Of a DNA stretch of 32,000 nt, positions 1 to 14,996 are shown in pieces. Position 1 is the first letter of the stretch. The number at the start of each line of letters is the position of its first letter. The translations under genes and the position numbers were made by a program. The DNA is taken from assembly GCF_000270205.1 (NCBI RefSeq), contig NC_015913.1:600001-632000 (forward strand), written 5' to 3'. A model generated the notes under the pieces. The model was not told the DNA's origin. It saw only the letters and a program-made list of their open reading frames with translations, and ran no database searches. Source of the DNA: Candidatus Arthromitus sp. SFB-mouse-Japan (GTDB lineage Bacteria > Bacillota > Clostridia > Clostridiales > Clostridiaceae).

Positions 1-189
1 TTAAAAAATGCTTTGGAAAACCTCCCAATTAAATTGAAAACTATAGTCATTTTAAGGTTTTTTGAAGATTTTAAGATTAAGGATATTTCAAATATTTTGG
101 ATATGAATGAGAATACAGTTAAAACTAATTTATATAAAGCATTGAAAATACTTAAAATTAATTTAGAGGAGGAGGGTATTAATGTATAG
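1..189 (+). CDS. ECF-type (sigma-70 family) RNA polymerase sigma factor, C-terminal fragment; 5' end lies outside the window
   Basis: Frame 1 is open from base 1 to TAG at 187-189. It translates to LKNALENLPIKLKTIVILRFFEDFKIKDISNILDMNENTVKTNLYKALKILKINLEEEGINV, which is the region-4 helix-turn-helix pattern of ECF sigma factors. It is absent from the ORF track because it has no start codon in the window. Confidence 0.75.
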   Translation, partial: LKNALENLPIKLKTIVILRFFEDFKIKDISNILDMNENTVKTNLYKALKILKINLEEEGINV

Positions 190-787
190 TGATAAGGATT
201 TAGATTCTTTAAAAGAAGATTATTTAAGTCAAGACTATCCTGATGATTTAAATGAATATGTTATGGGGTGTATTTCTAAACAAGCTATTAAAACATCAAA
301 TAAGTCCAAGAGTATAACTACTTTTTATGTTGGAGTAGCCTTTGCTGTATGCTTATTGCTTGCAATTTTACCAAAAACTCTAAAAAAATATGATACTGAT
401 AATAATCAAATTGTTGATGGGTCAATTGATTCTCATTTATCTAGAATTACCGTTTATGGTGATAATCCTGAAAATAAAAATTCTATAGTAGAGAACGAGT
501 CAATAATTTCAATATATACTATTAATGAAGAAATTACTTTAAAAGATAAGATTTACAATATAGATAAGAATAAGGGTGTTTTGATCGAGTTAAGAGATAT
601 ATTAATTGAAGGGATTGAAAATATAGAGATAGATAATAAGCTGAAAGAAATTTTAATTAATCCTGACACTAAGTTCTTTTTAGGTGAGAGTGGAGATTAT
701 ATTATTTTATCTGAAGATGGCAAAATTGTAATTGATGATATTTTAAGTCACAAAATATTTAAATCTGAGTATGTGTTTAAAAGCTAG
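182..787 (+). CDS. Single-pass membrane protein, putative cognate anti-sigma factor
   Basis: The ATG at 182 overlaps the sigma gene stop by 8 nt (aATGtaTAG), which suggests translational coupling. There is one hydrophobic segment (TTFYVGVAFAVCLLLAILP) after a roughly 45-aa cytoplasmic N-terminus and before a roughly 135-aa extracytoplasmic domain. I recognise no zinc-finger anti-sigma motif, so the call rests on context and topology only. Confidence 0.45.
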   Translation: MYSDKDLDSLKEDYLSQDYPDDLNEYVMGCISKQAIKTSNKSKSITTFYVGVAFAVCLLLAILPKTLKKYDTDNNQIVDGSIDSHLSRITVYGDNPENKNSIVENESIISIYTINEEITLKDKIYNIDKNKGVLIELRDILIEGIENIEIDNKLKEILINPDTKFFLGESGDYIILSEDGKIVIDDILSHKIFKSEYVFKS

Positions 788-816
788 TAATTTTTATTAT
801 TAGCTTTATATTTTTT
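780..816 (+). terminator. Rho-independent terminator after the putative anti-sigma gene
   Basis: Arm 780-790 (aaagctagtaa) pairs with 797-807 (ttattagcttt) over 11 bp, including one G-U pair. The loop is 791-796 and a T-rich run (atatttttt) follows. The TAG stop lies within the left arm. Confidence 0.6.
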
Positions 817-1040
817 CAAAGTTCGGATAACTCCATTGCAAGAAATAAGTTTGAGCATTAAAAATTGATTTGAGTGCAAGTATGAGGAAATGGAGTTAAC
901 CAAACTTAAAAAAAATATATTTTTAGGTAATTTTAGTATTAATATTTAGTTGTTATATATTCTTTATAGGTATGTAAGTTTATATTTTTAGTATTTAAAA
1001 ATACATAATATTTTAATGATTTTTCATTAAATGACATTAT

Positions 1041-1135
1041 TTTTTAATATTTATATAGTTAAGGATACTAGTTTTTAATATTTATTTAATTAAAAGTTCC
1101 TATTTTTAATTTATTAATGATCGTATAATTAAATC
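1041..1135 (+). promoter_or_regulatory. Conserved upstream module of cassette 1: 14-bp direct repeat plus a candidate -10 box; copies also lie upstream of cassettes 2 and 3
   Basis: tttttaatatttat occurs at 1041-1054 and again at 1072-1085, a 31-bp offset. TATAAT is at 1124-1129 (cgTATAAT), with matching TATAAT boxes at 2359-2364 and 3459-3464. No convincing -35 hexamer is present, and conservation across copies reflects duplication rather than independent selection. Confidence 0.3.
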
Positions 1136-1197
1136 ATCAAGTAGGACAAATAAATATTTGATATTGATAGAATAGAATTATTTAGGAGATGTTTAAT

Positions 1198-2169
1198 ATG
1201 TTAAAAGATAAGATTAAGAAAATTGTATCAGTAGTAGCTTTAGGAGCATTAATAACATTTGGAGCAGGGGCTGTAAGCTCTATGGCAACTACTAATAGTG
1301 AAGCACAAATAGTTCAATCATATGGTATGGATTATAGTCACTCTAATTTAGTGAAAGAGATGTTAGATGCAGGGTATATAGATCAAGCGAAGGCGGATAA
1401 TTTTAATAATAATATAAATTCTGAAAGCACACAAATGGAAATAGATAAGACATATGATTTATTTTTAGTTGATTTGAATGTAAAAGAAGGATACTATAGT
1501 GCGGAGTTAGGAGAATTAGGGAAGCTAGTAATAGAGGCAGAGTATTCAGTGGATGGATTATCAGAAGAATTATACAATAGATATATGGATCAATTAGAGA
1601 AAGAAGGATTTTTATCATATAGTTATCCTGATTTAGTGAAAGAGATGTTAGATGCAGGGTATATAGATCAAGCGAAGGCGGATAATTTTAATAATAATAT
1701 AAATTCTGAAAGCACACAAATGGAAATAGATAAGACATATGATTTATTTTTAGTTAATTTGAATGTAAAAGAAGGATATTGTAGTGCGGAGCTAGGAGAA
1801 TTAGAGAAACAATTGATAGAAGCAGATTATGCAGATAATGATGCATTATACAATGAGATATATGTTAGATATATGACTCAATATTATTTAGATAGTGTAA
1901 AAGAGTTGCTAAGTGCAGGTTATATAGATCAAGCGAAGGCGGATAATTTTAATAATAATATAAATTCTGAAAGCACACGAATGGAGATAGATAAGACATA
2001 TGGATTATTTGTAGTTGATTTGAATGTAAAAGAAGGATACTATAGTGCGGAGTTAGGGGAGTTAGAGAAGCAAGTAATAGAAGCAGAGAATTCAGTGGAT
2101 GGATTATCAGAAGAATTATACAATAGATATATGGATCAATTAGAGAAAGAAGGATTTTTAGTTGAATAG
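1198..2169 (+). CDS. Exported 95-aa-module repeat protein, paralog A (signal peptide + 3 modules); function unknown
   Basis: The ORF track gives 1189..2169. AGGAG (1184-1188) abuts the ATG at 1189, whereas the ATG at 1198 has 9-nt spacing, so 1198 is preferred. The N-terminus MLKDKIKKIVSVVALGALITFGAGAVSSMA/TTNSEAQ looks like a cleavable signal peptide. Three modules carry the motifs YIDQAKADNFNNNINSES, EIDKTY.LF.VDLNVKEGYYSAELGELEK and LYNRYMDQLEKEGFL. Confidence 0.8.
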   Translation: MLKDKIKKIVSVVALGALITFGAGAVSSMATTNSEAQIVQSYGMDYSHSNLVKEMLDAGYIDQAKADNFNNNINSESTQMEIDKTYDLFLVDLNVKEGYYSAELGELGKLVIEAEYSVDGLSEELYNRYMDQLEKEGFLSYSYPDLVKEMLDAGYIDQAKADNFNNNINSESTQMEIDKTYDLFLVNLNVKEGYCSAELGELEKQLIEADYADNDALYNEIYVRYMTQYYLDSVKELLSAGYIDQAKADNFNNNINSESTRMEIDKTYGLFVVDLNVKEGYYSAELGELEKQVIEAENSVDGLSEELYNRYMDQLEKEGFLVE

Positions 2170-2199
2170 TTAACCAATTTTAGTGATTAATTATGTTTT

Positions 2200-2230
2200 A
2201 AGGAAGTTTTGTTGTAAAGCTTCCTTTTTT
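2200..2230 (+). terminator. Rho-independent terminator of cassette 1
   Basis: aaggaagtttt gttgt aaagcttcctt forms a hairpin (7 bp, one mismatch, then 3 bp) followed by a T-run. Confidence 0.6.
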
Positions 2231-2432
2231 GCATAGATGATGAATATTTAACAAATTTTCATTAAATGACATTATTTTTTAATATTTATATAGTTAAGGA
2301 CATTATTTTTTAATATTTATTTAATTAAAAGTTCCTATTTTTAATTTATTAATGATTGTATAATTAAATCATCAAGTAGGACAAACAAGTATTTAATATT
2401 AGTAGAATATAATTATTTAGGAGATGTTTAAT

Positions 2433-3269
2433 ATGTTAAATAATGATAATGATAATGATAAGGTTTCAAGTAAAGAAATTAAAGATTTAAATAAAGTAGG
2501 TAAGAGTTTAAGTAAGAAAACAAAGATAGTGTTGTTATCTGTTGGAGTGGGAGCTTTTATTGCGTTAGCAGTATATGGTATATATAAGGGATTAAATAAA
2601 AATATACAAAATGATGTAGCACAAAATATACAAGTTTCTGGAAGTTATCCAAATGAATTTTATAGTGAAAGTGACCGGTATATTGATAGTATTAGTGAAA
2701 TGTTAGATGCAGGATATATAGATCAAACGAAAGCGAATAATTTTATAAATAATATAGACTCTGATGATATAAAATTGGAGATAGGTAAGACATATGATTT
2801 ATTTTTAGTTGATTTAGATGTAAAAGAAGGATACTATAGTGCGGAGTTAGGAGAGTTAGAGAAACAATTGATAGAAGCAGATTATGCAGGTAATGATGCA
2901 TTATACAATGAGATATATAGTAAGTATGAAGAACAGTGGGAAAAAGATTTTGGAGATAGTGGAGATAGTTATGTATCAGATGATTATCCTAGTTTAGTGA
3001 AAGAGATGTTAGATGCAGGGTATATAGATCAAGCGAAGGCGGATAATTTTAATAATAATATAAATTCTGAAAGCACACGAATGGAAATAGATAAGACATA
3101 TGGATTATTTGTAGTTGATTTGAATGTAAAAGAAGGGCACTATAGTGCGGAGTTGGGAGAGTTAGAGAAGCAAGTAATAGAGGCAGAGAATTCAGTGGAT
3201 GGATTATCAGAAGAATTATACAATAGATATATGGATCAATTAGAGAAAGAAGGATTTTTAGTTGAATAG
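2433..3269 (+). CDS. Membrane-anchored 95-aa-module repeat protein, paralog B (N-terminal TM anchor + 2 modules); function unknown
   Basis: The ORF track gives 2424..3269, and the same AGGAG-ATG-n6-ATG arrangement favours the ATG at 2433. The N-terminus is polar and charged (NNDNDNDKVSSKEIKDLNKVGKSLSKKTK). It is followed by a TM segment (IVLLSVGVGAFIALAVYGIY) rather than a cleavable signal peptide, and then by two modules. Confidence 0.8.
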   Translation: MLNNDNDNDKVSSKEIKDLNKVGKSLSKKTKIVLLSVGVGAFIALAVYGIYKGLNKNIQNDVAQNIQVSGSYPNEFYSESDRYIDSISEMLDAGYIDQTKANNFINNIDSDDIKLEIGKTYDLFLVDLDVKEGYYSAELGELEKQLIEADYAGNDALYNEIYSKYEEQWEKDFGDSGDSYVSDDYPSLVKEMLDAGYIDQAKADNFNNNINSESTRMEIDKTYGLFVVDLNVKEGHYSAELGELEKQVIEAENSVDGLSEELYNRYMDQLEKEGFLVE

Positions 3270-3299
3270 TTAACTAATTTTAGTGACCAATTATATTTT

Positions 3300-3330
3300 A
3301 AGGAAGTTTTATTGTAAAGCTTCCTTTTTT
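3300..3330 (+). terminator. Rho-independent terminator of cassette 2
   Basis: aaggaagttttattgtaaagcttcctttttt is the same hairpin as in cassette 1 with one loop substitution. Confidence 0.6.
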
Positions 3331-3532
3331 GCATAGATGATGAATATTTAACAAATTTTCATTAAATGACATTATTTTTTAATATTTATATAGTTAAGGA
3401 TACTAGTTTTTAATATTTATTTAATTAAAAGTTCCTATTTTTAATTTATTAATGATCGTATAATTAAATCATCAAGTAGGACAAATAAATATTTGATATT
3501 GATAGAATAGAATTATTTAGGAGATGTTTAAT

Positions 3533-4528
3533 ATGTTAAAAGATAAGATTAAGAAAATTGTATCAGTAGTAGCTTTAGGAGCATTAATAACATTTGGAGC
3601 AGGGGCTGTAAGCTCTATGGCAACTACTAATAGTGAAGCACAAATAGTTCAATCATATGGTATGGATTATAGTCACTCTGATTTAGTGAAAGAGATGTTA
3701 GATGCAGGATATATAGATCAAGCGAAGGCGGATAATTTTAATAATAATATAAATTCTGAAAGCACACAAATGGAAATAGATAAGACATATGATTTATTTT
3801 TAGTTGATTTGAATGTAAAAGAAGGATACTATAGTGCGGAGTTAGGAGAGTTAGAGAAGCGAGTAATAGAGGCAGAGTATTCAGTGGATGGATTATCAGA
3901 AGAATTATACAATAGATATATGGATCAATTAGAGAAAGAAGGATTTTTATCATATAGTTATCCTGATTTAGTGAAAGAGATGTTAGATGCAGGGTATATA
4001 GATCAAGCGAAGGCGGATAATTTTAATAATAATATAAATTCTGAAAGCACACAAATGGAAATAGATAAGACATATGATTTATTTTTAGTTGATTTGAATG
4101 TAAAAGAAGGATACTATAGTGCGGAGTTAGGAGAGTTAGAGAAGCGAGTAATAGAGGCAGAGTATTCAGTGGATGGATTATCAGAAGAATTATACAATAG
4201 ATATATGGATCAATTAGAGAAAGAAGGATTTTTATCATATAGTTATCCTGATTTAGTGAAAGAGATGTTAGATGCAGGGTATATAGATCAAGCGAAGGCG
4301 GATAATTTTAATAATAATATAAATTCTGAAAGCACACAAATGGAAATAGATAAGACATATGATTTATTTTTAGTTGATTTGAATGTAAAAGAAGGATACT
4401 ATAGTGCGGAGTTAGGAGAGTTAGAGAAGCGAGTAATAGAGGCAGAGTATTCAGTGGATGGATTATCAGAAGAATTATACAATAGATATATGGATCAATT
4501 AGAGAAAGAAGGATTTTTAGTTGAATAG
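3533..4528 (+). CDS. Exported 95-aa-module repeat protein, paralog C (signal peptide + 3 near-identical modules); function unknown
   Basis: The ORF track gives 3524..4528, and the ATG at 3533 is preferred on Shine-Dalgarno spacing. The signal peptide is identical to paralog A. The protein is 49 aa plus 3 x 95 aa when counted from the track start. Confidence 0.8.
   Translation: MLKDKIKKIVSVVALGALITFGAGAVSSMATTNSEAQIVQSYGMDYSHSDLVKEMLDAGYIDQAKADNFNNNINSESTQMEIDKTYDLFLVDLNVKEGYYSAELGELEKRVIEAEYSVDGLSEELYNRYMDQLEKEGFLSYSYPDLVKEMLDAGYIDQAKADNFNNNINSESTQMEIDKTYDLFLVDLNVKEGYYSAELGELEKRVIEAEYSVDGLSEELYNRYMDQLEKEGFLSYSYPDLVKEMLDAGYIDQAKADNFNNNINSESTQMEIDKTYDLFLVDLNVKEGYYSAELGELEKRVIEAEYSVDGLSEELYNRYMDQLEKEGFLVE
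3668..4528 (+). repeat. In-frame tandem repeat, 3 x 285 bp, within paralog C
   Basis: Units begin at 3680, 3965 and 4250 (gatttagtgaaagag...). Unit 1 differs from unit 2 by one synonymous base (gcaggatat vs gcagggtat). Units 2 and 3 are identical up to the point where unit 3 ends in gttgaatag instead of tcatatagttatcct. Confidence 0.95.
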
Positions 4529-4558
4529 TTAACTAATTTTAGTGACTAATTATATTTT

Positions 4559-4597
4559 AAGGAAGTTTTGTTGTAAAGCTTCCTTTTTGTTTTTTAG
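4559..4597 (+). terminator. Rho-independent terminator of cassette 3
   Basis: aaggaagttttgttgtaaagcttcctt forms the hairpin and tttgtttttt follows. Confidence 0.6.
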
Positions 4598-4682: not shown

Positions 4683-6041
4683 GTGTTAAATAGTCTGGAA
4701 AAGAGATATGGGTTTTGGACAGCCGTTGCGATGGTTGTAGGGATTGTTATAGGGAGTGGTGTGTTTTTTAAAGCAGAAAAAGTCATTCAAATTACCGATG
4801 GTAATATATACATAGGTATATTTTCTTGGATTGCTAGTGGAAGTATAATGGTTATTTGTGCTTATGCTTTTTCAATTTTAGCAGGACGGTATTCTAAAGT
4901 TAATGGAATTGTTGATTATTCAGAGGCTTCTTTTGGGAAAACATATGGTTATATTGTTGGTTGGTTTATGTCTGTTGTTTATTATCCATCGCTTACTGCT
5001 ATATTGTGCTGGATATCTGCACGATATACGTTAACTCTATTTGGGATCAACATTGGTGCAAATAGTACAGAAGTGTATGTAATAGGTATAATTTATTTAG
5101 TTTTAATTTGTGCTTTGAATATATTTGCTCCGATGTTAGCAGGAAAAATTCAAGTTTCTACAACTTTTATAAAATTAATTCCACTAGTTCTTATGGGAGT
5201 TATAGGTATAATTAAGGGGATTTCAAATGGACAGATAGTACAAAATTTTGTTAGTGTATCAACTGATATTGTTACTTCTAATTCAATATTTGGGGCAATT
5301 GTGGCTACAGCGTTTGCCTATGAGGGTTGGATTGTTGCTACAACTATAAACTCTGAATTAAAGAATTCACGTAAAGATTTGCCTAAAGCTTTGATTGTAG
5401 GGAGTATTTTCATAGTTGTTGTATATACGTTATATTTTATAGGAATCTCTGGACCATTGTCTGTTAATGATTTTATACAAGGTGGAGAAGACTCAATTAA
5501 ACATGCATTTTTTAATATTTTAGGAAATTTTGGAGGAAGTACATTATTTATTTTTGTCATAATTTCTTGTCTTGGAACTTTAAATGGTATGATGCTTGCA
5601 ACTATAAGGGGATTATATTCATTATCGATTAGGGGAATGGGACCATGTCCTAAATTTTTCTCAAAGGTGAGTGAGAAAACTAATTTACCCGTTAACTCAG
5701 GGTTATTTGGAGTTATAATAGTATTCATATGGATATTATTGTGGTATTTAAGTAATAAAGGTTTTTTTGGTCTGTTTTTAGATTTTTCAGAGTTACCAGT
5801 TATTAGTATGTATGCATTGTATATTCCTATATTCTTATGCATGAGTAGGAAACTTGAGGGTTTGAATATATTTAATAAGTATATCATACCTTATGCAGCT
5901 GTAGTATGTTCATTATTTATGATATATGCGACTATTCTTTCTCATGGAATTGTAGCTGTTAGTTTGTATTTTGTATTATTTGTATTTGTGATTGTAGTAG
6001 GATTGATATTTAAAAATGGTTCAAAAAAAGAGAGTCTGTAA
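4683..6041 (+). CDS. Amino acid permease, APC superfamily
   Basis: The 452-aa product is a polytopic membrane protein. Its N-terminal motif FWTAVAMVVGIVIGSGVFF (GSG(I/V)F) is typical of APC transporters, and about 12 hydrophobic segments are visible. The GTG start lies 10 nt after AGGAGG (4667-4672). Confidence 0.85.
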   Translation: MLNSLEKRYGFWTAVAMVVGIVIGSGVFFKAEKVIQITDGNIYIGIFSWIASGSIMVICAYAFSILAGRYSKVNGIVDYSEASFGKTYGYIVGWFMSVVYYPSLTAILCWISARYTLTLFGINIGANSTEVYVIGIIYLVLICALNIFAPMLAGKIQVSTTFIKLIPLVLMGVIGIIKGISNGQIVQNFVSVSTDIVTSNSIFGAIVATAFAYEGWIVATTINSELKNSRKDLPKALIVGSIFIVVVYTLYFIGISGPLSVNDFIQGGEDSIKHAFFNILGNFGGSTLFIFVIISCLGTLNGMMLATIRGLYSLSIRGMGPCPKFFSKVSEKTNLPVNSGLFGVIIVFIWILLWYLSNKGFFGLFLDFSELPVISMYALYIPIFLCMSRKLEGLNIFNKYIIPYAAVVCSLFMIYATILSHGIVAVSLYFVLFVFVIVVGLIFKNGSKKESL

Positions 6042-6053
6042 TCAGACTCTCTT
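6028..6053. terminator. Bidirectional terminator hairpin shared by two convergent genes
   Basis: There is a perfect 11-bp stem, aagagagtctg (6028-6038) with cagactctctt (6043-6053), and a loop taat. An A-run lies upstream and T-rich sequence downstream, so it can terminate both strands. The permease TAA (6039-6041) sits in the loop, and the minus-strand gene's stop (6052-6054) sits in the right arm. Confidence 0.7.
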
Positions 6054-7338
6054 AATATTTTATACCGATTAATTTTATAAGATTTTTAAATTCAGATTCA
6101 CCAACCATTTTAGTTACAATACTCTCAACAGATTTTTTATCATCATTTGTAATTTTAAAATTTTCTTCGTATTCCTTTATCCAGAAATTAAGCCCTTCAT
6201 CATCAGGAGTTCTATTGTACATAACAGCGTATATTTTGGTTATTTTATCTATAGAATTTTGTGAAACCTGTAAGAATTCTTCAGTATTTAATAAATTTAA
6301 TATAAAATCTCTTGCACTTATATTAAAATTAGAAAGTTGAATAAACCAATACTTAAAACCACTTTTATCTAATTCAGTTCTATTTAATGCTGTAGAATAG
6401 GCATTTTCAATATATGATGCAAGTTTCTTTAAATCAATATTAACGATATTTGTTGAAAAATTATTAATTATAAAGTTGTGTAGTTTGTTATCTGTATCCT
6501 GAACGATTAATTTAACATTTTTATATTCTTCATTTTGCTTTAGATTGGTTAATATAAGCTCATTTGTTTCTTTATTTATAACAAAGCTTAAATTAGTATC
6601 AGATAGTTTGGCATCTTTTATTACTAAATCATTTGGCAAAAGAACTTTACCTTGTATGTTGTTGTTATTTTTGCTTAGCTTTATATCAATGTAACTAAAG
6701 TTTTTGTTTACAGTTGTGAATTCATTTAGATTAAACATATGTTGATTATTTTGATCATCTAAAATTGTTAATGTTAAATGTGAATATGTAGTTTCAGGTT
6801 TTAGTGCAAGTAATGTAATAATACCATCTGAAACATCAATTAATAAATTATTACTGGATATACTGGCAGATACTGGATATATGTATGTTGGAAGTACAAC
6901 TTCTCCGCTAAAATTATTTTTATATGAAGAAACTTTTACATCAAGAGATTTGGTAACTTGGCTAGGAGTTTTAAAATCGTTCAGTTTGAATGTATAAGTT
7001 TTATTAGATAAATCGGTTAATTTTATTGAAATATTTTCATATGTGGTTTCAGGTTTTAAGTTATATAATTTGACTTGATTATCAGCGATGTCAATGGATA
7101 GGGAAGTATCAGAAACTTCCGCAGAAGTGAAGTTATATTTATTAATTTCTGGAATTATCACTTTAGCCACTATCATATCGCCTTCATGTATAAAGAATCT
7201 AACATTTAATTTTTCTGATATGTTATATGTACTTTGATTTTCTATTGATAAAGTTTTAATGCCTGTATTAATTATGTTACTTAAAGGAAATAATGCAGTT
7301 GTTGATGCAATTAATAATTTTACAAATGATTTTTTCAT
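6052..7338 (-). CDS. Secreted or surface protein with three roughly 85-aa beta-rich repeats and C-terminal DUF4214-type repeats
   Basis: The signal peptide is MKKSFVKLLIASTTALFPLSNI. Three diverged repeats each end in a shared motif (L.NLKPETTYENISIKL..., LLALKPETTYSHLTLTIL..., LTNLKQNEEYKNVKLIV...F..N.F.T). The C-terminus has two DUF4214-like units (LNRTELDKSGFKYWFIQL....SARDFILNLLNTEEF and MYNRTPDDEGLNFWIKEY). The Shine-Dalgarno sequence GGGGGGA lies upstream on the minus strand. Confidence 0.8.
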   Translation of the reverse strand: MKKSFVKLLIASTTALFPLSNIINTGIKTLSIENQSTYNISEKLNVRFFIHEGDMIVAKVIIPEINKYNFTSAEVSDTSLSIDIADNQVKLYNLKPETTYENISIKLTDLSNKTYTFKLNDFKTPSQVTKSLDVKVSSYKNNFSGEVVLPTYIYPVSASISSNNLLIDVSDGIITLLALKPETTYSHLTLTILDDQNNQHMFNLNEFTTVNKNFSYIDIKLSKNNNNIQGKVLLPNDLVIKDAKLSDTNLSFVINKETNELILTNLKQNEEYKNVKLIVQDTDNKLHNFIINNFSTNIVNIDLKKLASYIENAYSTALNRTELDKSGFKYWFIQLSNFNISARDFILNLLNTEEFLQVSQNSIDKITKIYAVMYNRTPDDEGLNFWIKEYEENFKITNDDKKSVESIVTKMVGESEFKNLIKLIGIKY

Positions 7339-11444: not shown

Positions 11445-14400
11445 GTGATTAAAAGAAAGACAATGACTGTTGATGGTAATGGTGCTGCAGCATATGTCGC
11501 ATATGCATTTACAGAAATAGCAGCTATTTATCCTATATCACCTTCAAGTGGTGTTGGAGAAAATATAGATGAAATGGCATCACAAGGCAAAAAAAATATA
11601 TTTGGGAGAGTTGTTGACATTGTAGAAATGCAATCAGAGGCAGGGGCAGCAGGTACGGTTCATGGCTTACTACAAGGCGGAACTCTTACAACTACTTATA
11701 CAGCGTCTCAAGGATTATTATTAATGATACCTAATATGTATAAGATTGCTGGAGAGTTGCTTCCAGGAGTGTTTTATGTAACAGCAAGAGCTGTAGCAGC
11801 ACAAGCACTATCTATATTTGGTGATCATCAAGACGTTATGGCAACTAAACAAACAGGATTTTCTTTGTTAGCAGTTAGTGGAGTTCAAGAAATTATGGAT
11901 TTAGCTCCTATTGCTCATTTATCTGCAATTAAAGGGAAAGTTCCATTTCTTGTATTTTATGACGGATATAGAACATCACATGAAGTTCAAAAGGTAGAAG
12001 CATTTGAATACGAAGAATTAAAGAAATTAGTTGATTTTGATGCTTTGAATGAGTTTAAGAGCAGAGCATTAAATCCTGGAAATCCTGTAAGTAGAGGTAC
12101 TGCACAAAACCCTGATATATATTTTCAGGCTAGAGAGGCTGCAAATACTTATTATGAGGAATTACCAAAAATAGTTGAGCAGTATATGGGCAAAATAAAT
12201 GAGCTTACTGGTAAGAATTATAAATTGTTTAATTATTATGGGGCACAGGATGCTGAAAGAATAATAATTTGTATGGGATCTTCTGCAGAGACTGTAGAAG
12301 AAACTGTTGATTATTTGATGTCAAAAGGTGAAAAAGTTGGTGTTCTCATAGTTCATTTATATAGACCGTTTAGTGTTAAGCATTTGTTAAATGAGATTCC
12401 TATGAGTGTCGAGAAAATAGCTGTTTTGGATAGAACCAAAGAGCCAGGATCTCAGGGTGAACCATTATACAAAGATGTTATATCAGCTTTTTATGGAACG
12501 GATAGAAATCCAACAATAGTTGGTGGACGTTATGGATTAGCTTCTAAAGAGATTAATCCTACTCATGTGGTTTCTGTATTTGAATTATTAAAATCTAATA
12601 GTGTAGTTAATGGATTTACTGTTGGTATAGTAGACGATGTTACAAATACTAGTATAGATTTAGTAGATGATGTATTAATAGAGGATTCGGCAATGATTAG
12701 CTGTAAGTTCTGGGGATTGGGATCTGATGGAACTGTTGGAGCTAATAAAATGGCTATTAAAATAATTGGAGATAATACTGATAAACATGTTCAAGCTTAT
12801 TTTGAATATGATTCTAAAAAATCTGGTGGGATAACAATTTCTCATTTAAGATTTGGAGATAGCAGGATTAGATCTACTTATGGAATAGTTAAGGCTGATT
12901 TTGTAGCTTGTCATAATCAGGCGTATATGAGTAAATATGAAACAATTGTTACCGGTGTAAAAAATAATGGTGCATTTTTGTTGAATACATTGTGGACTCC
13001 TGAAGAATTAGAGGAAAAATTGCCTGCACACGTTAAGAGAACGATTGCAAATAATAATATACATTTTTATACAATAAATGCTGTTAAGATTGCTAGAGAG
13101 TTAGGTCTTGGTGGAAGAATTAATATGATAATGCAATCAGCGTTCTTTAAACTAGCGAAAATAATACCTATAGAGGATGCTGTTAAATATTTAAAGGCAT
13201 CTGCAGAAAAAGCATATGGTAAAAAAGGTGAAAAAATTGTAAAAATGAACTTTGATGCTATAGATGCAGGTGTTTCTGCTATAGTTAAAATTGATGTTCC
13301 AGAAAGCTGGAAGAATGCACAGGATATTGATAAAAAAGATGTTTACACTTGTAATTTAGGTAAAACTGATTACGTGAAGAGTATTCTTGAACCAGTAAAT
13401 AAACTTCAAGGAAATACTTTACCTGTAAGTGTATTTAAAGGTAGAGAAGATGGTACATTTGAGCATGGAACTTCTAAGTTTGAGAAGAGAGGTATTGCGG
13501 TTACCGTACCTAAGTGGAATCCTGAGACATGTATCCAATGTAATATGTGTGCGTTTGTTTGTCCACATGCCGTTATTAGACCGTTCCTGTTAACAGATGA
13601 TGAGATGAAAAATGCTCCAGAAGGATATTTATCTGCTGAGGCAAAAGGTATTAAGACAGAAAATAAATTACAATTTTCTATGCAAGTTTCTATAGAAGAT
13701 TGTACAGGATGCGGTAACTGTGTAGATGTATGTCCATCTAAACCAAAATCATTGGAAATGGTTTCTACTGATGGTGAACGTGATAAGCATAAGCAAGAGC
13801 ATTATGATTATTCATTTGATCCAGAAAAAGTTTCTCCTAAAAAGAATCCACTCCCACTTACAACAGTTAAAGCGAGTCAATTCCAAGAACCATTGATGGA
13901 ATTTAGTGGGGCTTGTGCTGGATGTGGCGAGACTCCTTATTCTAAACTTGTAACTCAATTGTTTGGACCAAGAATGGTAGTTGCCAACGCAACTGGATGT
14001 TCTTCTATTTGGGGTGGATCTGTACCAGCTATGCCTTATACTAAAAATAGTGAGGGAAGAGGACCAGCTTGGGCTAACTCCTTATTTGAAGATGCTGCCG
14101 AGTTTGGTTATGGGTTATATTTAGCTTCAAAAAATAGAAGAAACGATAATCTTTCTTTGGCTAATGAATTGATTGAAAAAGGAAATATTTCTTCAGAACT
14201 AAGTGCGTTATTAAAAGAGTGGTGTGAGAATTTTAATAATGGTGATATGACTTTGGAATTGCAAAAGAAAATAGTTCCATTATTAGAGAAAGAATCAGAC
14301 GCTATAGCTAAGAAATTGTTAAATAATAAAGAGTTTTTTGTTAAAACTTCTAATTGGATATTTGGAGGAGATGGATGGGCTTATGATATTGGATTTGGTG

Positions 14401-14996
14401 GTCTAGATCATGTTATTGCACAGAATCAAGATATCAACATTCTAATATTTGATACCGAAATATATTCAAATACTGGAGGTCAATCTTCTAAGTCAACTCC
14501 ATTTGGTGCTATAGCTAAGTTTGCTGCACAAGGTAAGAGAGTCAAGAAGAAAAATTTAGCTGCAATGGCTATGAGTTATGGATATGTTTATGTTGCTCAA
14601 GTATCTTTAAGTGCTGACTTTAATCAAGCATTGAAGGCTATAAAAGAAGCTGAGGCTTATCCAGGACCATCAATAGTAATTGCATATAGTCAGTGTATAA
14701 GTCACGGAATATTGACTGGAATGGGTACAGCTCAAAAGCAAGCTAAGAGAGCTATAGAGGCTGGATATTGGAGTTTATTTAGATATAATCCGGCATTGAA
14801 AGATGAAGGAAAGAATCCATTTATATTAGACTCTAAAGAGCCAACTCAAGACTTTAAAGAGTATATTAAGAGTGAGATAAGATTTAATTCTTTATCTAAG
14901 ATTGTTCCAGAAGAGATGGAAAAAATATTTGATCAAGCAGCTAGAGATGCTGAAGAGAAAAATAAACAATATAGAGATCTTGCTGGTTTAGAATAA
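11445..14996 (+). CDS. nifJ: Pyruvate:ferredoxin (flavodoxin) oxidoreductase, single-polypeptide type
   Basis: The N-terminus MIKRKTMTVDGNGAAAYVAYAFTEIAAIYPISPSS is typical. There are two 4Fe-4S motifs (CIQCNMCAFVCP and CTGCGNCVDVCP) and a TPP-binding region (GGDGWAYDIGFGGLDHV). The ORF track starts at GTG 11412, but the GTG at 11445 sits 6 nt after GAAGGA (11433-11438) and gives the usual N-terminus. ATG 11463 is an alternative start. Confidence 0.95.
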   Translation: MIKRKTMTVDGNGAAAYVAYAFTEIAAIYPISPSSGVGENIDEMASQGKKNIFGRVVDIVEMQSEAGAAGTVHGLLQGGTLTTTYTASQGLLLMIPNMYKIAGELLPGVFYVTARAVAAQALSIFGDHQDVMATKQTGFSLLAVSGVQEIMDLAPIAHLSAIKGKVPFLVFYDGYRTSHEVQKVEAFEYEELKKLVDFDALNEFKSRALNPGNPVSRGTAQNPDIYFQAREAANTYYEELPKIVEQYMGKINELTGKNYKLFNYYGAQDAERIIICMGSSAETVEETVDYLMSKGEKVGVLIVHLYRPFSVKHLLNEIPMSVEKIAVLDRTKEPGSQGEPLYKDVISAFYGTDRNPTIVGGRYGLASKEINPTHVVSVFELLKSNSVVNGFTVGIVDDVTNTSIDLVDDVLIEDSAMISCKFWGLGSDGTVGANKMAIKIIGDNTDKHVQAYFEYDSKKSGGITISHLRFGDSRIRSTYGIVKADFVACHNQAYMSKYETIVTGVKNNGAFLLNTLWTPEELEEKLPAHVKRTIANNNIHFYTINAVKIARELGLGGRINMIMQSAFFKLAKIIPIEDAVKYLKASAEKAYGKKGEKIVKMNFDAIDAGVSAIVKIDVPESWKNAQDIDKKDVYTCNLGKTDYVKSILEPVNKLQGNTLPVSVFKGREDGTFEHGTSKFEKRGIAVTVPKWNPETCIQCNMCAFVCPHAVIRPFLLTDDEMKNAPEGYLSAEAKGIKTENKLQFSMQVSIEDCTGCGNCVDVCPSKPKSLEMVSTDGERDKHKQEHYDYSFDPEKVSPKKNPLPLTTVKASQFQEPLMEFSGACAGCGETPYSKLVTQLFGPRMVVANATGCSSIWGGSVPAMPYTKNSEGRGPAWANSLFEDAAEFGYGLYLASKNRRNDNLSLANELIEKGNISSELSALLKEWCENFNNGDMTLELQKKIVPLLEKESDAIAKKLLNNKEFFVKTSNWIFGGDGWAYDIGFGGLDHVIAQNQDINILIFDTEIYSNTGGQSSKSTPFGAIAKFAAQGKRVKKKNLAAMAMSYGYVYVAQVSLSADFNQALKAIKEAEAYPGPSIVIAYSQCISHGILTGMGTAQKQAKRAIEAGYWSLFRYNPALKDEGKNPFILDSKEPTQDFKEYIKSEIRFNSLSKIVPEEMEKIFDQAARDAEEKNKQYRDLAGLE

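Follow-up and report, generated by a model that had tools for sequence, protein, structure and literature searches.

Segmented filamentous bacteria (SFB) are textbook commensals that induce T helper 17 (Th17) cells and immunoglobulin A (IgA); they are genetically intractable, and hardly any of the proteins that they present to the host are known. In a 32,000-nucleotide (nt) stretch of Candidatus Arthromitus sp. SFB-mouse-Japan (NC_015913.1, positions 600,001 to 632,000; hereafter the window, whose own numbering we use), the 3' end of a gene for a SigV-like extracytoplasmic function (ECF) sigma factor and an overlapping candidate anti-sigma gene are followed by a spacer of ~410 nt, three same-strand cassettes encoding exported repeat proteins, and a permease gene. 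Does the sigma factor govern the cassettes beside it, and what are the proteins that they encode? The answer we favor, with fair confidence, is that the cassettes are autonomous tandem units for SFB-restricted, extracellular, acidic five-helix proteins, transcribed from a private promoter with a separate regulator and remodeled by unequal recombination.

Genes 1 and 3 of the array are SFBM_0549 and SFBM_0551 of Candidatus Arthromitus sp. SFB-mouse; in the database, gene 1 matches P0001 (SFBM_0549) and gene 3 matches P0026 (SFBM_0551), both at 100% identity. Because two other mouse-SFB assemblies (L001 and L002) match the window at 99.8% identity across the array, the sole difference being one 285-nt module, the array is real and not an assembly artifact. 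The initial annotation of this DNA had reported the sigma/anti-sigma pair, a 400-bp spacer and three cassettes, each with its own upstream module and terminator; all of these features are present, and the cassettes bear out as autonomous units. A literature search found no paper mentioning SFBM_0547-0551, and the cassette family is discussed neither in the SFB genome paper (PMC3158464) nor in a 2026 comparative paper (PMC13153320). By locus tag gene 3 is SFBNYU_010290, the only Th17-antigen tag found in the paper search is SFBNYU_003340, and the cassette genes are not, on this basis, published Th17 antigens. A second Th17-antigen tag, which we take to be SFBNYU_004990, matched no paper.

All three cassettes lie on the plus strand. 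Cassette 1 opens with a regulatory module at 1012-1197 (direct repeats at 1033, 1064 and 1095; CTATTT at 1100-1105; an 18-nt spacer; TATAAT at 1124-1129; AGGAG at 1184-1188), continues with gene 1 at 1198-2169, whose 323-amino-acid (aa) product consists of a signal peptide and three modules (1336-1620, 1621-1881 and 1882-2166), and ends in a terminator at 2200-2231 with a 12-bp stem and a T-run. Cassette 2 comprises a regulatory module at 2247-2432 (repeats at 2268, 2299 and 2330; TATAAT at 2359-2364), gene 2 at 2433-3269 (278 aa, a transmembrane (TM) anchor and two modules at 2676-2981 and 2982-3266; protein clusters P0004 and P0006) and a terminator hairpin at 3300-3331. The regulatory module of cassette 3, at 3347-3532 (repeats at 3368, 3399 and 3430; TATAAT at 3459-3464), is 99% identical to that of cassette 1; it precedes gene 3 at 3533-4528, which encodes 331 aa with the same signal peptide as gene 1 and three modules (3671-3955, 3956-4240 and 4241-4525), and a terminator hairpin at 4559-4590. 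Gene starts were set at the second ATG, 9 nt past the first, as the more probable start, because the AGGAG box abuts the first ATG; this choice agrees with the 323-aa database entry.

Repetition extends over both the regulatory and the coding parts of the array. The upstream module, taken as 300 nt, is present in three copies at 71-99% identity, and terminator-like hairpins, each with a 12-bp stem, follow the cassettes in three places where 0.5 would be expected. The eight protein modules (3+2+3) measure 285, 261 or 306 nt and share 76-99% DNA identity; those of gene 3 are detected by Tandem Repeats Finder (TRF) as a period of 285 in 3.0 copies at 99%.

The promoter module (~170 nt) has an invariant TATAAT, preceded by a spacer that is constant in length (18 nt) but not in sequence and, before that, by an invariant T-CTATTT block. 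Upstream of the -10 element, direct repeats of GAYAYTAnTTTTTAAT recur at a 31-bp phase, with the proximal copy overlapping the -35 position, and TRF reports period 31 in two to four copies at 982-1110, 2261-2345 and 3361-3445. A leader of ~60 nt containing AGGAG separates the promoter from the open reading frame (ORF). The window contains the string CTATTT-N18-TATAAT three times, where 0.08 would be expected; of 39 loci only seven have it, in each case just upstream of family genes by coordinates, and a longer 56-nt promoter motif was likewise restricted across 44 loci. Six family loci have an upstream sequence that can be read, and the module is present at five of them, which represent all three locus types described below; no copy is evident ahead of the family genes of L036 (locus C) and L004. 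From the perfect -10, the lack of a sigmaA-like -35 and the phased repeats that reach the -35 position, we infer an activator-dependent housekeeping promoter. The 31-bp phasing suggests sites for a regulator that would bind one face of the helix.

The sigma/anti-sigma operon has the features of a separate transcription unit. The window holds the last 62 codons of the sigma gene, which encode region 4 (1-189, plus strand; Sigma70_r4_2, E 1e-13). The full protein, read from L001, has 173 aa, matches both Sigma70_r2 and Sigma70_r4_2, and scores 62.3 bits on TIGR02937 (cutoff 42.9), which classes it as an ECF (group 4) sigma factor. Its best-scoring model is the SigV equivalog NF053879, at 157.5 bits in mouse SFB and 157.8 in rat SFB, below the cutoff of 190. 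The 201-aa candidate anti-sigma factor (182-787, plus strand), whose first 8 nt overlap the end of the sigma gene, has a single TM span at residues ~45-63 (Kyte-Doolittle maximum 2.48) and an extracytoplasmic part of ~135 aa. Overlap, predicted cytoplasmic N-terminus, one TM span and external C-terminus fit the generic layout of a membrane anti-sigma factor, and together with the TIGR02937 score they uphold the pair as first annotated; as a system, the pair is of a known and ordinary kind.

No Pfam domain was found in the candidate anti-sigma factor. Its residues 7-62 weakly match the RsiV model NF052658 (E 5e-4; 19.5 bits against a cutoff of 250), a score that does not identify it as RsiV, and the extracytoplasmic lysozyme-binding domain of RsiV was not detected in it. 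Homologs amount to three protein clusters in all, every one of them SFB-like, and an AlphaFold2 model built from three sequences was unusable, at a predicted local distance difference test (pLDDT) score of 37. The operon is preceded by a sigmaA-like promoter, TTTACT-18-TGaTATAAT, which is kept in L005. It probably ends at an AT-rich hairpin with a U-tract at 780-816 (plus strand; dG -11.8 kcal/mol, z -4.7), a likely terminator at the anti-sigma stop that has equivalents with different arm sequences in rat SFB, L005 and a chicken relative.

The family occurs at no fewer than three types of locus. Locus A, sigma/anti-sigma-[cassette]-permease, carries three cassettes in mouse SFB, one cassette with one module in rat SFB, and at least one in L005. 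Locus B has the order Enc34-like-[gene]-76-aa gene-RecJ and was found in rat SFB (RATSFB_0409, four modules) and L034; the divergent L004 also fits locus B as far as its short contig shows, through the conserved convergent 76-aa gene. Locus C, dNK-PNP-[gene], is represented by L003 and L036-38. Neither locus B nor locus C has a sigma gene within 8-10 kb. In the chicken SFB relative Candidatus Dwaynia gallinarum (L006), an anti-sigma ortholog with 44% identity is followed 106 nt past its stop by the permease, with no cassette between. Because the permease directly follows the anti-sigma gene there, the simplest history starts from a sigma/anti-sigma-permease backbone that later received a cassette, and the permease is probably the ancestral right-hand neighbor of the anti-sigma gene.

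These comparisons bear on the proposal, made in the initial annotation, that the sigma factor is dedicated to the cassettes. On that model an envelope signal would free the neighboring ECF sigma factor from its membrane anti-sigma factor, and the sigma, with the cassettes as its regulon, would then drive every family promoter in trans, those at other loci included. ECF promoters have the consensus AAC at -35 and CGT at -10, 16-17 nt apart, and usually such a promoter also precedes the sigma operon. AAC-N14-18-CGT, a general ECF consensus that may not be the one used by this sigma factor, was found neither upstream of any cassette (six lineages) nor upstream of the sigma operon (three lineages), where there is hence no sign of autoregulation. 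Every lineage has a perfect TATAAT as the cassette -10; a CGT stands before it in two of the three cassettes of mouse SFB, but this CGT is not conserved. Nor was any motif found in common between the cassette promoter and the promoter of the sigma operon.

What speaks for a regulon is, first, position: the sigma gene stands beside cassettes in mouse SFB, rat SFB and L005, and ECF sigma factors often adjoin their own targets, as in the single sigV-rsiV-oatA-yrhK operon of Bacillus subtilis (PMC4105308). In addition, a conserved block unlike a sigmaA -35 (GTTaCTATTT) stands at a fixed distance from the cassette -10, and both the anti-sigma factor and the module family are apparently restricted to SFB. 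But a likely terminator separates the anti-sigma gene from the cassettes, which have their own TATAAT promoters; two of the three locus types have no sigma gene nearby; and the chicken relative has kept the anti-sigma gene, and presumably the pair, while lacking a cassette at the site. We therefore consider control by the neighboring sigma factor unlikely. The initial annotation had named, as findings that would count against it, cassette transcription independent of the sigma factor and a lack of conserved synteny; transcription does look independent, and the synteny is partly conserved, in rodent-type SFB only.

Several observations at locus B stand beside this comparison. The conserved 76-aa gene lies directly downstream of, and convergent to, the family gene (L039 9432-9662, L034 4273-4503 and L004 1862-2092, all on the minus strand), with 67-78% identity and no Pfam match. 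In database protein P0015 this gene is fused to a module, a chimera that reflects misassembly. An ORF of 76-97 aa upstream of the sigma gene was considered as a counterpart of the 76-aa gene and rejected, at 13-25% identity. Two genes downstream of rat locus B stands a gene for a PAS-HisKA histidine kinase (L039 11570-13228) with no adjacent response-regulator gene; it may be the counterpart of SFBM_0504, which was proposed as a sporulation-initiating kinase (PMC3158464). At the end of rat locus B, a 1438-aa fn3/DUF4214 protein is encoded.

The proteins encoded by the cassettes carry putative N-terminal export signals. In genes 1 and 3 the N-terminus reads, by inspection, as an n-h-c signal peptide of MLKDKIKK, IVSVVALGALITFGAGAV and SSMA, with predicted cleavage between SSMA and TT. 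Gene 2 begins with ~30 Lys-rich residues followed by a single TM span at residues ~32-50, and its product would be membrane-tethered and face outward. The hydrophobic segments reach Kyte-Doolittle maxima of 2.1-2.45. No wall-anchor domain or motif (LPXTG, SLH, CWB2, LysM or choline-binding) was found at Pfam E<=1, and the C-termini end in ...EKEGFLVE.

The ~95-aa module itself is acidic (pI 4.08, net charge -15) and contains ~8% Tyr. AlphaFold2, run on an alignment of 14 modules, predicted an all-helical domain of five helices with a mean pLDDT of 94.7. A Pfam search with a single module gave nothing significant, a profile search of PDB sequences gave nothing below E 0.5, and a Foldseek search of the model against PDB and BFVD gave nothing below E 1. 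The initial annotation had described the proteins as exported and the module as acidic, largely helical and outside any recognized family. Export is likely by inspection, charge and predicted fold agree with the description, and profile searches, structure prediction and Foldseek turned up no valid match in Pfam, NCBIfam or PDB. Matches of full-length proteins to HTH_24, PhoU and similar Pfam families were rejected as scores summed over repeats.

By all available searches the module family appears to be restricted to SFB. Single-sequence phmmer against 1.84 billion representatives matched 11 proteins, and an indexed search of 5.8 billion sequences returned eight clusters. A profile search that included the most divergent member gave seven small clusters, made up of one named SFB protein, known family members and short metagenome fragments. 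Every named match comes from mouse or rat Arthromitus, and the other metagenome contigs with family genes have gene neighborhoods like those of the rat SFB genome or of one another. Scans of genome and metagenome contigs with the module profile and a 28-base promoter pattern gave no match, which is uninformative on distribution, as mouse and rat SFB sequences are apparently not exposed in those collections: the promoter pattern matches the Joint Genome Institute (JGI) contigs L041 and L043 exactly yet scored zero in the metagenome scan, and the nearest permease in the genome-contig collection is only 66% identical. The ratio of nonsynonymous to synonymous substitution (dN/dS) in the module core is 0.15-0.31 between lineages, so the cassette genes are functional coding sequences under purifying selection.

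The number of modules varies among strains, and the array is a mosaic. Cassettes 1 and 3 are 98-99% identical over promoter, signal peptide and first module, and cassettes 1 and 2 are ~95% identical over the last module and terminator. Gene 3 encodes 331 aa in SFB-mouse-Japan and NYU and 236 aa (two modules) in Yit and SU, and 236 aa is the length read in L001 and L002; gene 1 encodes 323 aa, against 418 aa in SFB-mouse-NL. This four-module allele, AID44497.1 (P0020), is misnamed 'Delta-1-pyrroline-5-carboxylate dehydrogenase' in the database. In rat SFB, locus A holds a single module and locus B holds four, and mouse SFB has eight at locus A with no other copy detected. In at least five independent mouse-SFB metagenome contigs (L040-L044), compared with window 1639-4238, a single 141-aa, one-module gene stands where the window has the 3.4-kb array of three cassettes; this is most likely short-read collapse of the repeats, and metagenome-derived copy numbers at the locus are unreliable.

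Such variation could also mark a contingency or antigenic-variation locus, in which the repeats of an immunogenic surface protein change rapidly under pressure from host IgA and T cells. Finished mouse-SFB genomes do differ in module number, in genes 1 and 3 alike, the modules are a mosaic of shared segments, and SFB are strongly immunostimulatory symbionts whose cassette proteins are predicted to be exported. But modules within a strain are 88-99% identical with synonymous-biased dN/dS of 0.24-0.41, which leaves little antigenic diversity; there is no invertase, silent-cassette architecture or simple-sequence switch, and the genes are not, by locus tag, among the published Th17 antigens. We consider antigenic variation distinctly unlikely.

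The most likely role for the module lies on the surface of the bacterium or where it meets the host, and would be non-enzymatic, that of a scaffold for binding or structure or of a surface-matrix component; this placement draws only on export signals, composition and lineage restriction. A more specific proposal is that the module is a new, SFB-confined extracellular domain, amplified in mouse SFB beside a SigV-like envelope-stress system as an inducible host-interface factor, and to this we give little credence. If it held, the factor might, for example, bind cationic host antimicrobials such as lysozyme, defensins or RegIII or act as a decoy for them, or be a component of adhesion or matrix, and it would be expressed through the unusual 31-bp-phased promoter and possibly by the neighboring ECF sigma factor acting on a non-canonical promoter.

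The module might instead belong to a known family, either BrxL_N of BREX systems or DUF2680/YckD, and so not be novel. Two whole-protein BrxL_N scores, 32.8 and 31.9 bits, exceed the cutoff of 28.2, and the database tags P0001 with PF20442; single modules, though, score 14.6 bits (E 0.03), and only three of the 14 match, so the whole-protein score is a sum over repeats. No BrxL structure is among the Foldseek PDB matches, and BrxL is a cytoplasmic Lon-like ATPase domain, unlike the predicted exported cassette proteins. The PF20442 tag on SFBM_0549 is a false positive from repeat summing. DUF2680 is weakly matched by nine of the 14 modules (best E 5e-4), and P0014 and P0005, both of them divergent members, reach its cutoff of 25 with 27.3 and 25.0 bits. 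The proteins of the window stay under that cutoff, at 24.2, 19.0 and 22.0 bits, and the alignments cover ~30 residues on differing sub-motifs, the GYIDQAKAD hairpin in mouse SFB and the EGYYSAELGELEK hairpin in P0014; the matching helix-Gly-turn-helix hairpin is present twice per module. DUF2680 is itself without known function, and the likeness is a lead, not a classification. We consider membership in either family very improbable.

Autonomous cassettes under a separate regulator would be explained as follows. Locus A would juxtapose two separate things, the cassettes and a sigma/anti-sigma operon that has a promoter and a terminator to itself. A cassette would have been inserted between the anti-sigma and permease genes in rodent-type SFB and amplified to three in mouse SFB, so that the ECF pair became its neighbor through insertion. 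Each cassette would comprise a promoter module, a leader, an ORF with two or three modules and an intrinsic terminator, its promoter being a sigmaA promoter that depends on a DNA-binding regulator acting in trans. Two of the products would be released (genes 1 and 3) and one tethered to the membrane (gene 2). Unequal recombination, of cassettes with one another and of 285-nt modules likewise, would let the array grow and shrink.

Some points weigh against this explanation. The adjacency of sigma gene and cassettes has been kept in three rodent-type lineages (mouse, rat and L005), and the sigma factor may recognize something other than the general ECF consensus that the cassettes lack. The promoter assignment, the regulator sites and the function of the terminators all derive from sequence conservation. 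Signal peptides were judged by eye and hydropathy, with no predictor. Some of the copy-number variants come from short-read assemblies, which probably collapse repeats.

Between the anti-sigma terminator and cassette 1 lies a further conserved element, an inverted repeat of ~90 nt at 819-907 (plus strand; dG -21.5, z -3.35), which is also present at L035 9571-9660 and L005 1422-1510. Its 19-nt arms, AAGTTCGGATAACTCCATT and AATGGAGTTAACCAAACTT, have two mismatches and enclose a loop of ~50 nt, with no T-tract. The arms are invariant in mouse SFB, rat SFB and L005, and the loop drifts. The element is confined to the sigma locus; loci B and C lack it, as does the chicken relative, and no Rfam family was found for the window or for the spacer hairpin. 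It is possibly a small RNA, an operator or an insertion scar.

Downstream, and outside the cassette system, the window encodes an intact amino-acid permease of 452 aa (4683-6041, plus strand; AA_permease_2, E 1e-48). Single indels split this gene in L001 (365+77 aa; 13201-14558) and in L002 (43+397 aa; 13201-14558), reflecting either sequencing errors or strain-specific pseudogenization. The next gene (6052-7338, minus strand) encodes a 428-aa protein, called as 385 aa in L001, that starts with a signal-like segment and carries a DUF4214 domain (E 5e-9) at its C-terminus; by eye it also has three internal repeats of ~90 aa with a weak fn3-like signal. Proteins of this fn3/DUF4214 type are possibly another SFB surface-protein family.

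For work on host interaction in SFB, the cassette family is a modestly interesting lead and unsurprising in principle. It supplies testable candidates for surface or secreted factors and for a dedicated regulatory circuit. Two database labels prove misleading and are corrected here: the BrxL_N tag and, in SFB-mouse-NL, the name 'pyrroline-5-carboxylate dehydrogenase'.

Among known systems, the closest to the gene pair is the lysozyme-sensing SigV/RsiV system (ECF30 group) of Bacillus subtilis, Clostridioides difficile and Enterococcus faecalis, in which a sigma gene is likewise followed by an overlapping gene for a single-pass anti-sigma factor. The SFB sigma factor is nearest the SigV model, yet falls under the equivalog cutoff. 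Its partner has 201 aa against ~285 aa and is weakly RsiV-like in its N-terminal 56 residues. The SFB operon has no co-transcribed cell-wall-modifying target such as oatA or pdaV, and a recognizable autoregulatory promoter of the ECF type was not found there.

For the module, DUF2680 (PF10925, YckD-like, Firmicutes) offers a partial likeness: its members are also short, exported, all-helical proteins, and both share a helix-Gly-x-(I/Y)-(T/D/S)-x-E/Q-x-A-helix hairpin. Only ~30 of the 95 module residues align, at either of two hairpins, and homology over the whole domain is unsupported. The likeness to BrxL_N (PF20442) is limited to a summed hidden Markov model score above the gathering threshold in three-module proteins, with a different cellular compartment and a neighborhood without BREX genes.

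Tandem-repeat surface proteins of Gram-positive bacteria, such as the streptococcal alpha C/Rib family, vary in repeat number by recombination. Like them, the SFB proteins have a signal peptide followed by identical long repeats (gene 3: 285 nt, 99%) whose number differs between strains. Unlike them, they lack LPXTG, SLH, CWB2 or any other wall anchor, their repeats are predicted five-helix bundles and not Ig-like domains, whole cassettes are duplicated with promoter and terminator included, and one paralog is anchored in the membrane at its N-terminus. An exported tandem-repeat protein whose copy number changes by recombination is thus of a familiar kind; what is new here is the domain, the amplification of whole cassettes and the phased-repeat promoter.

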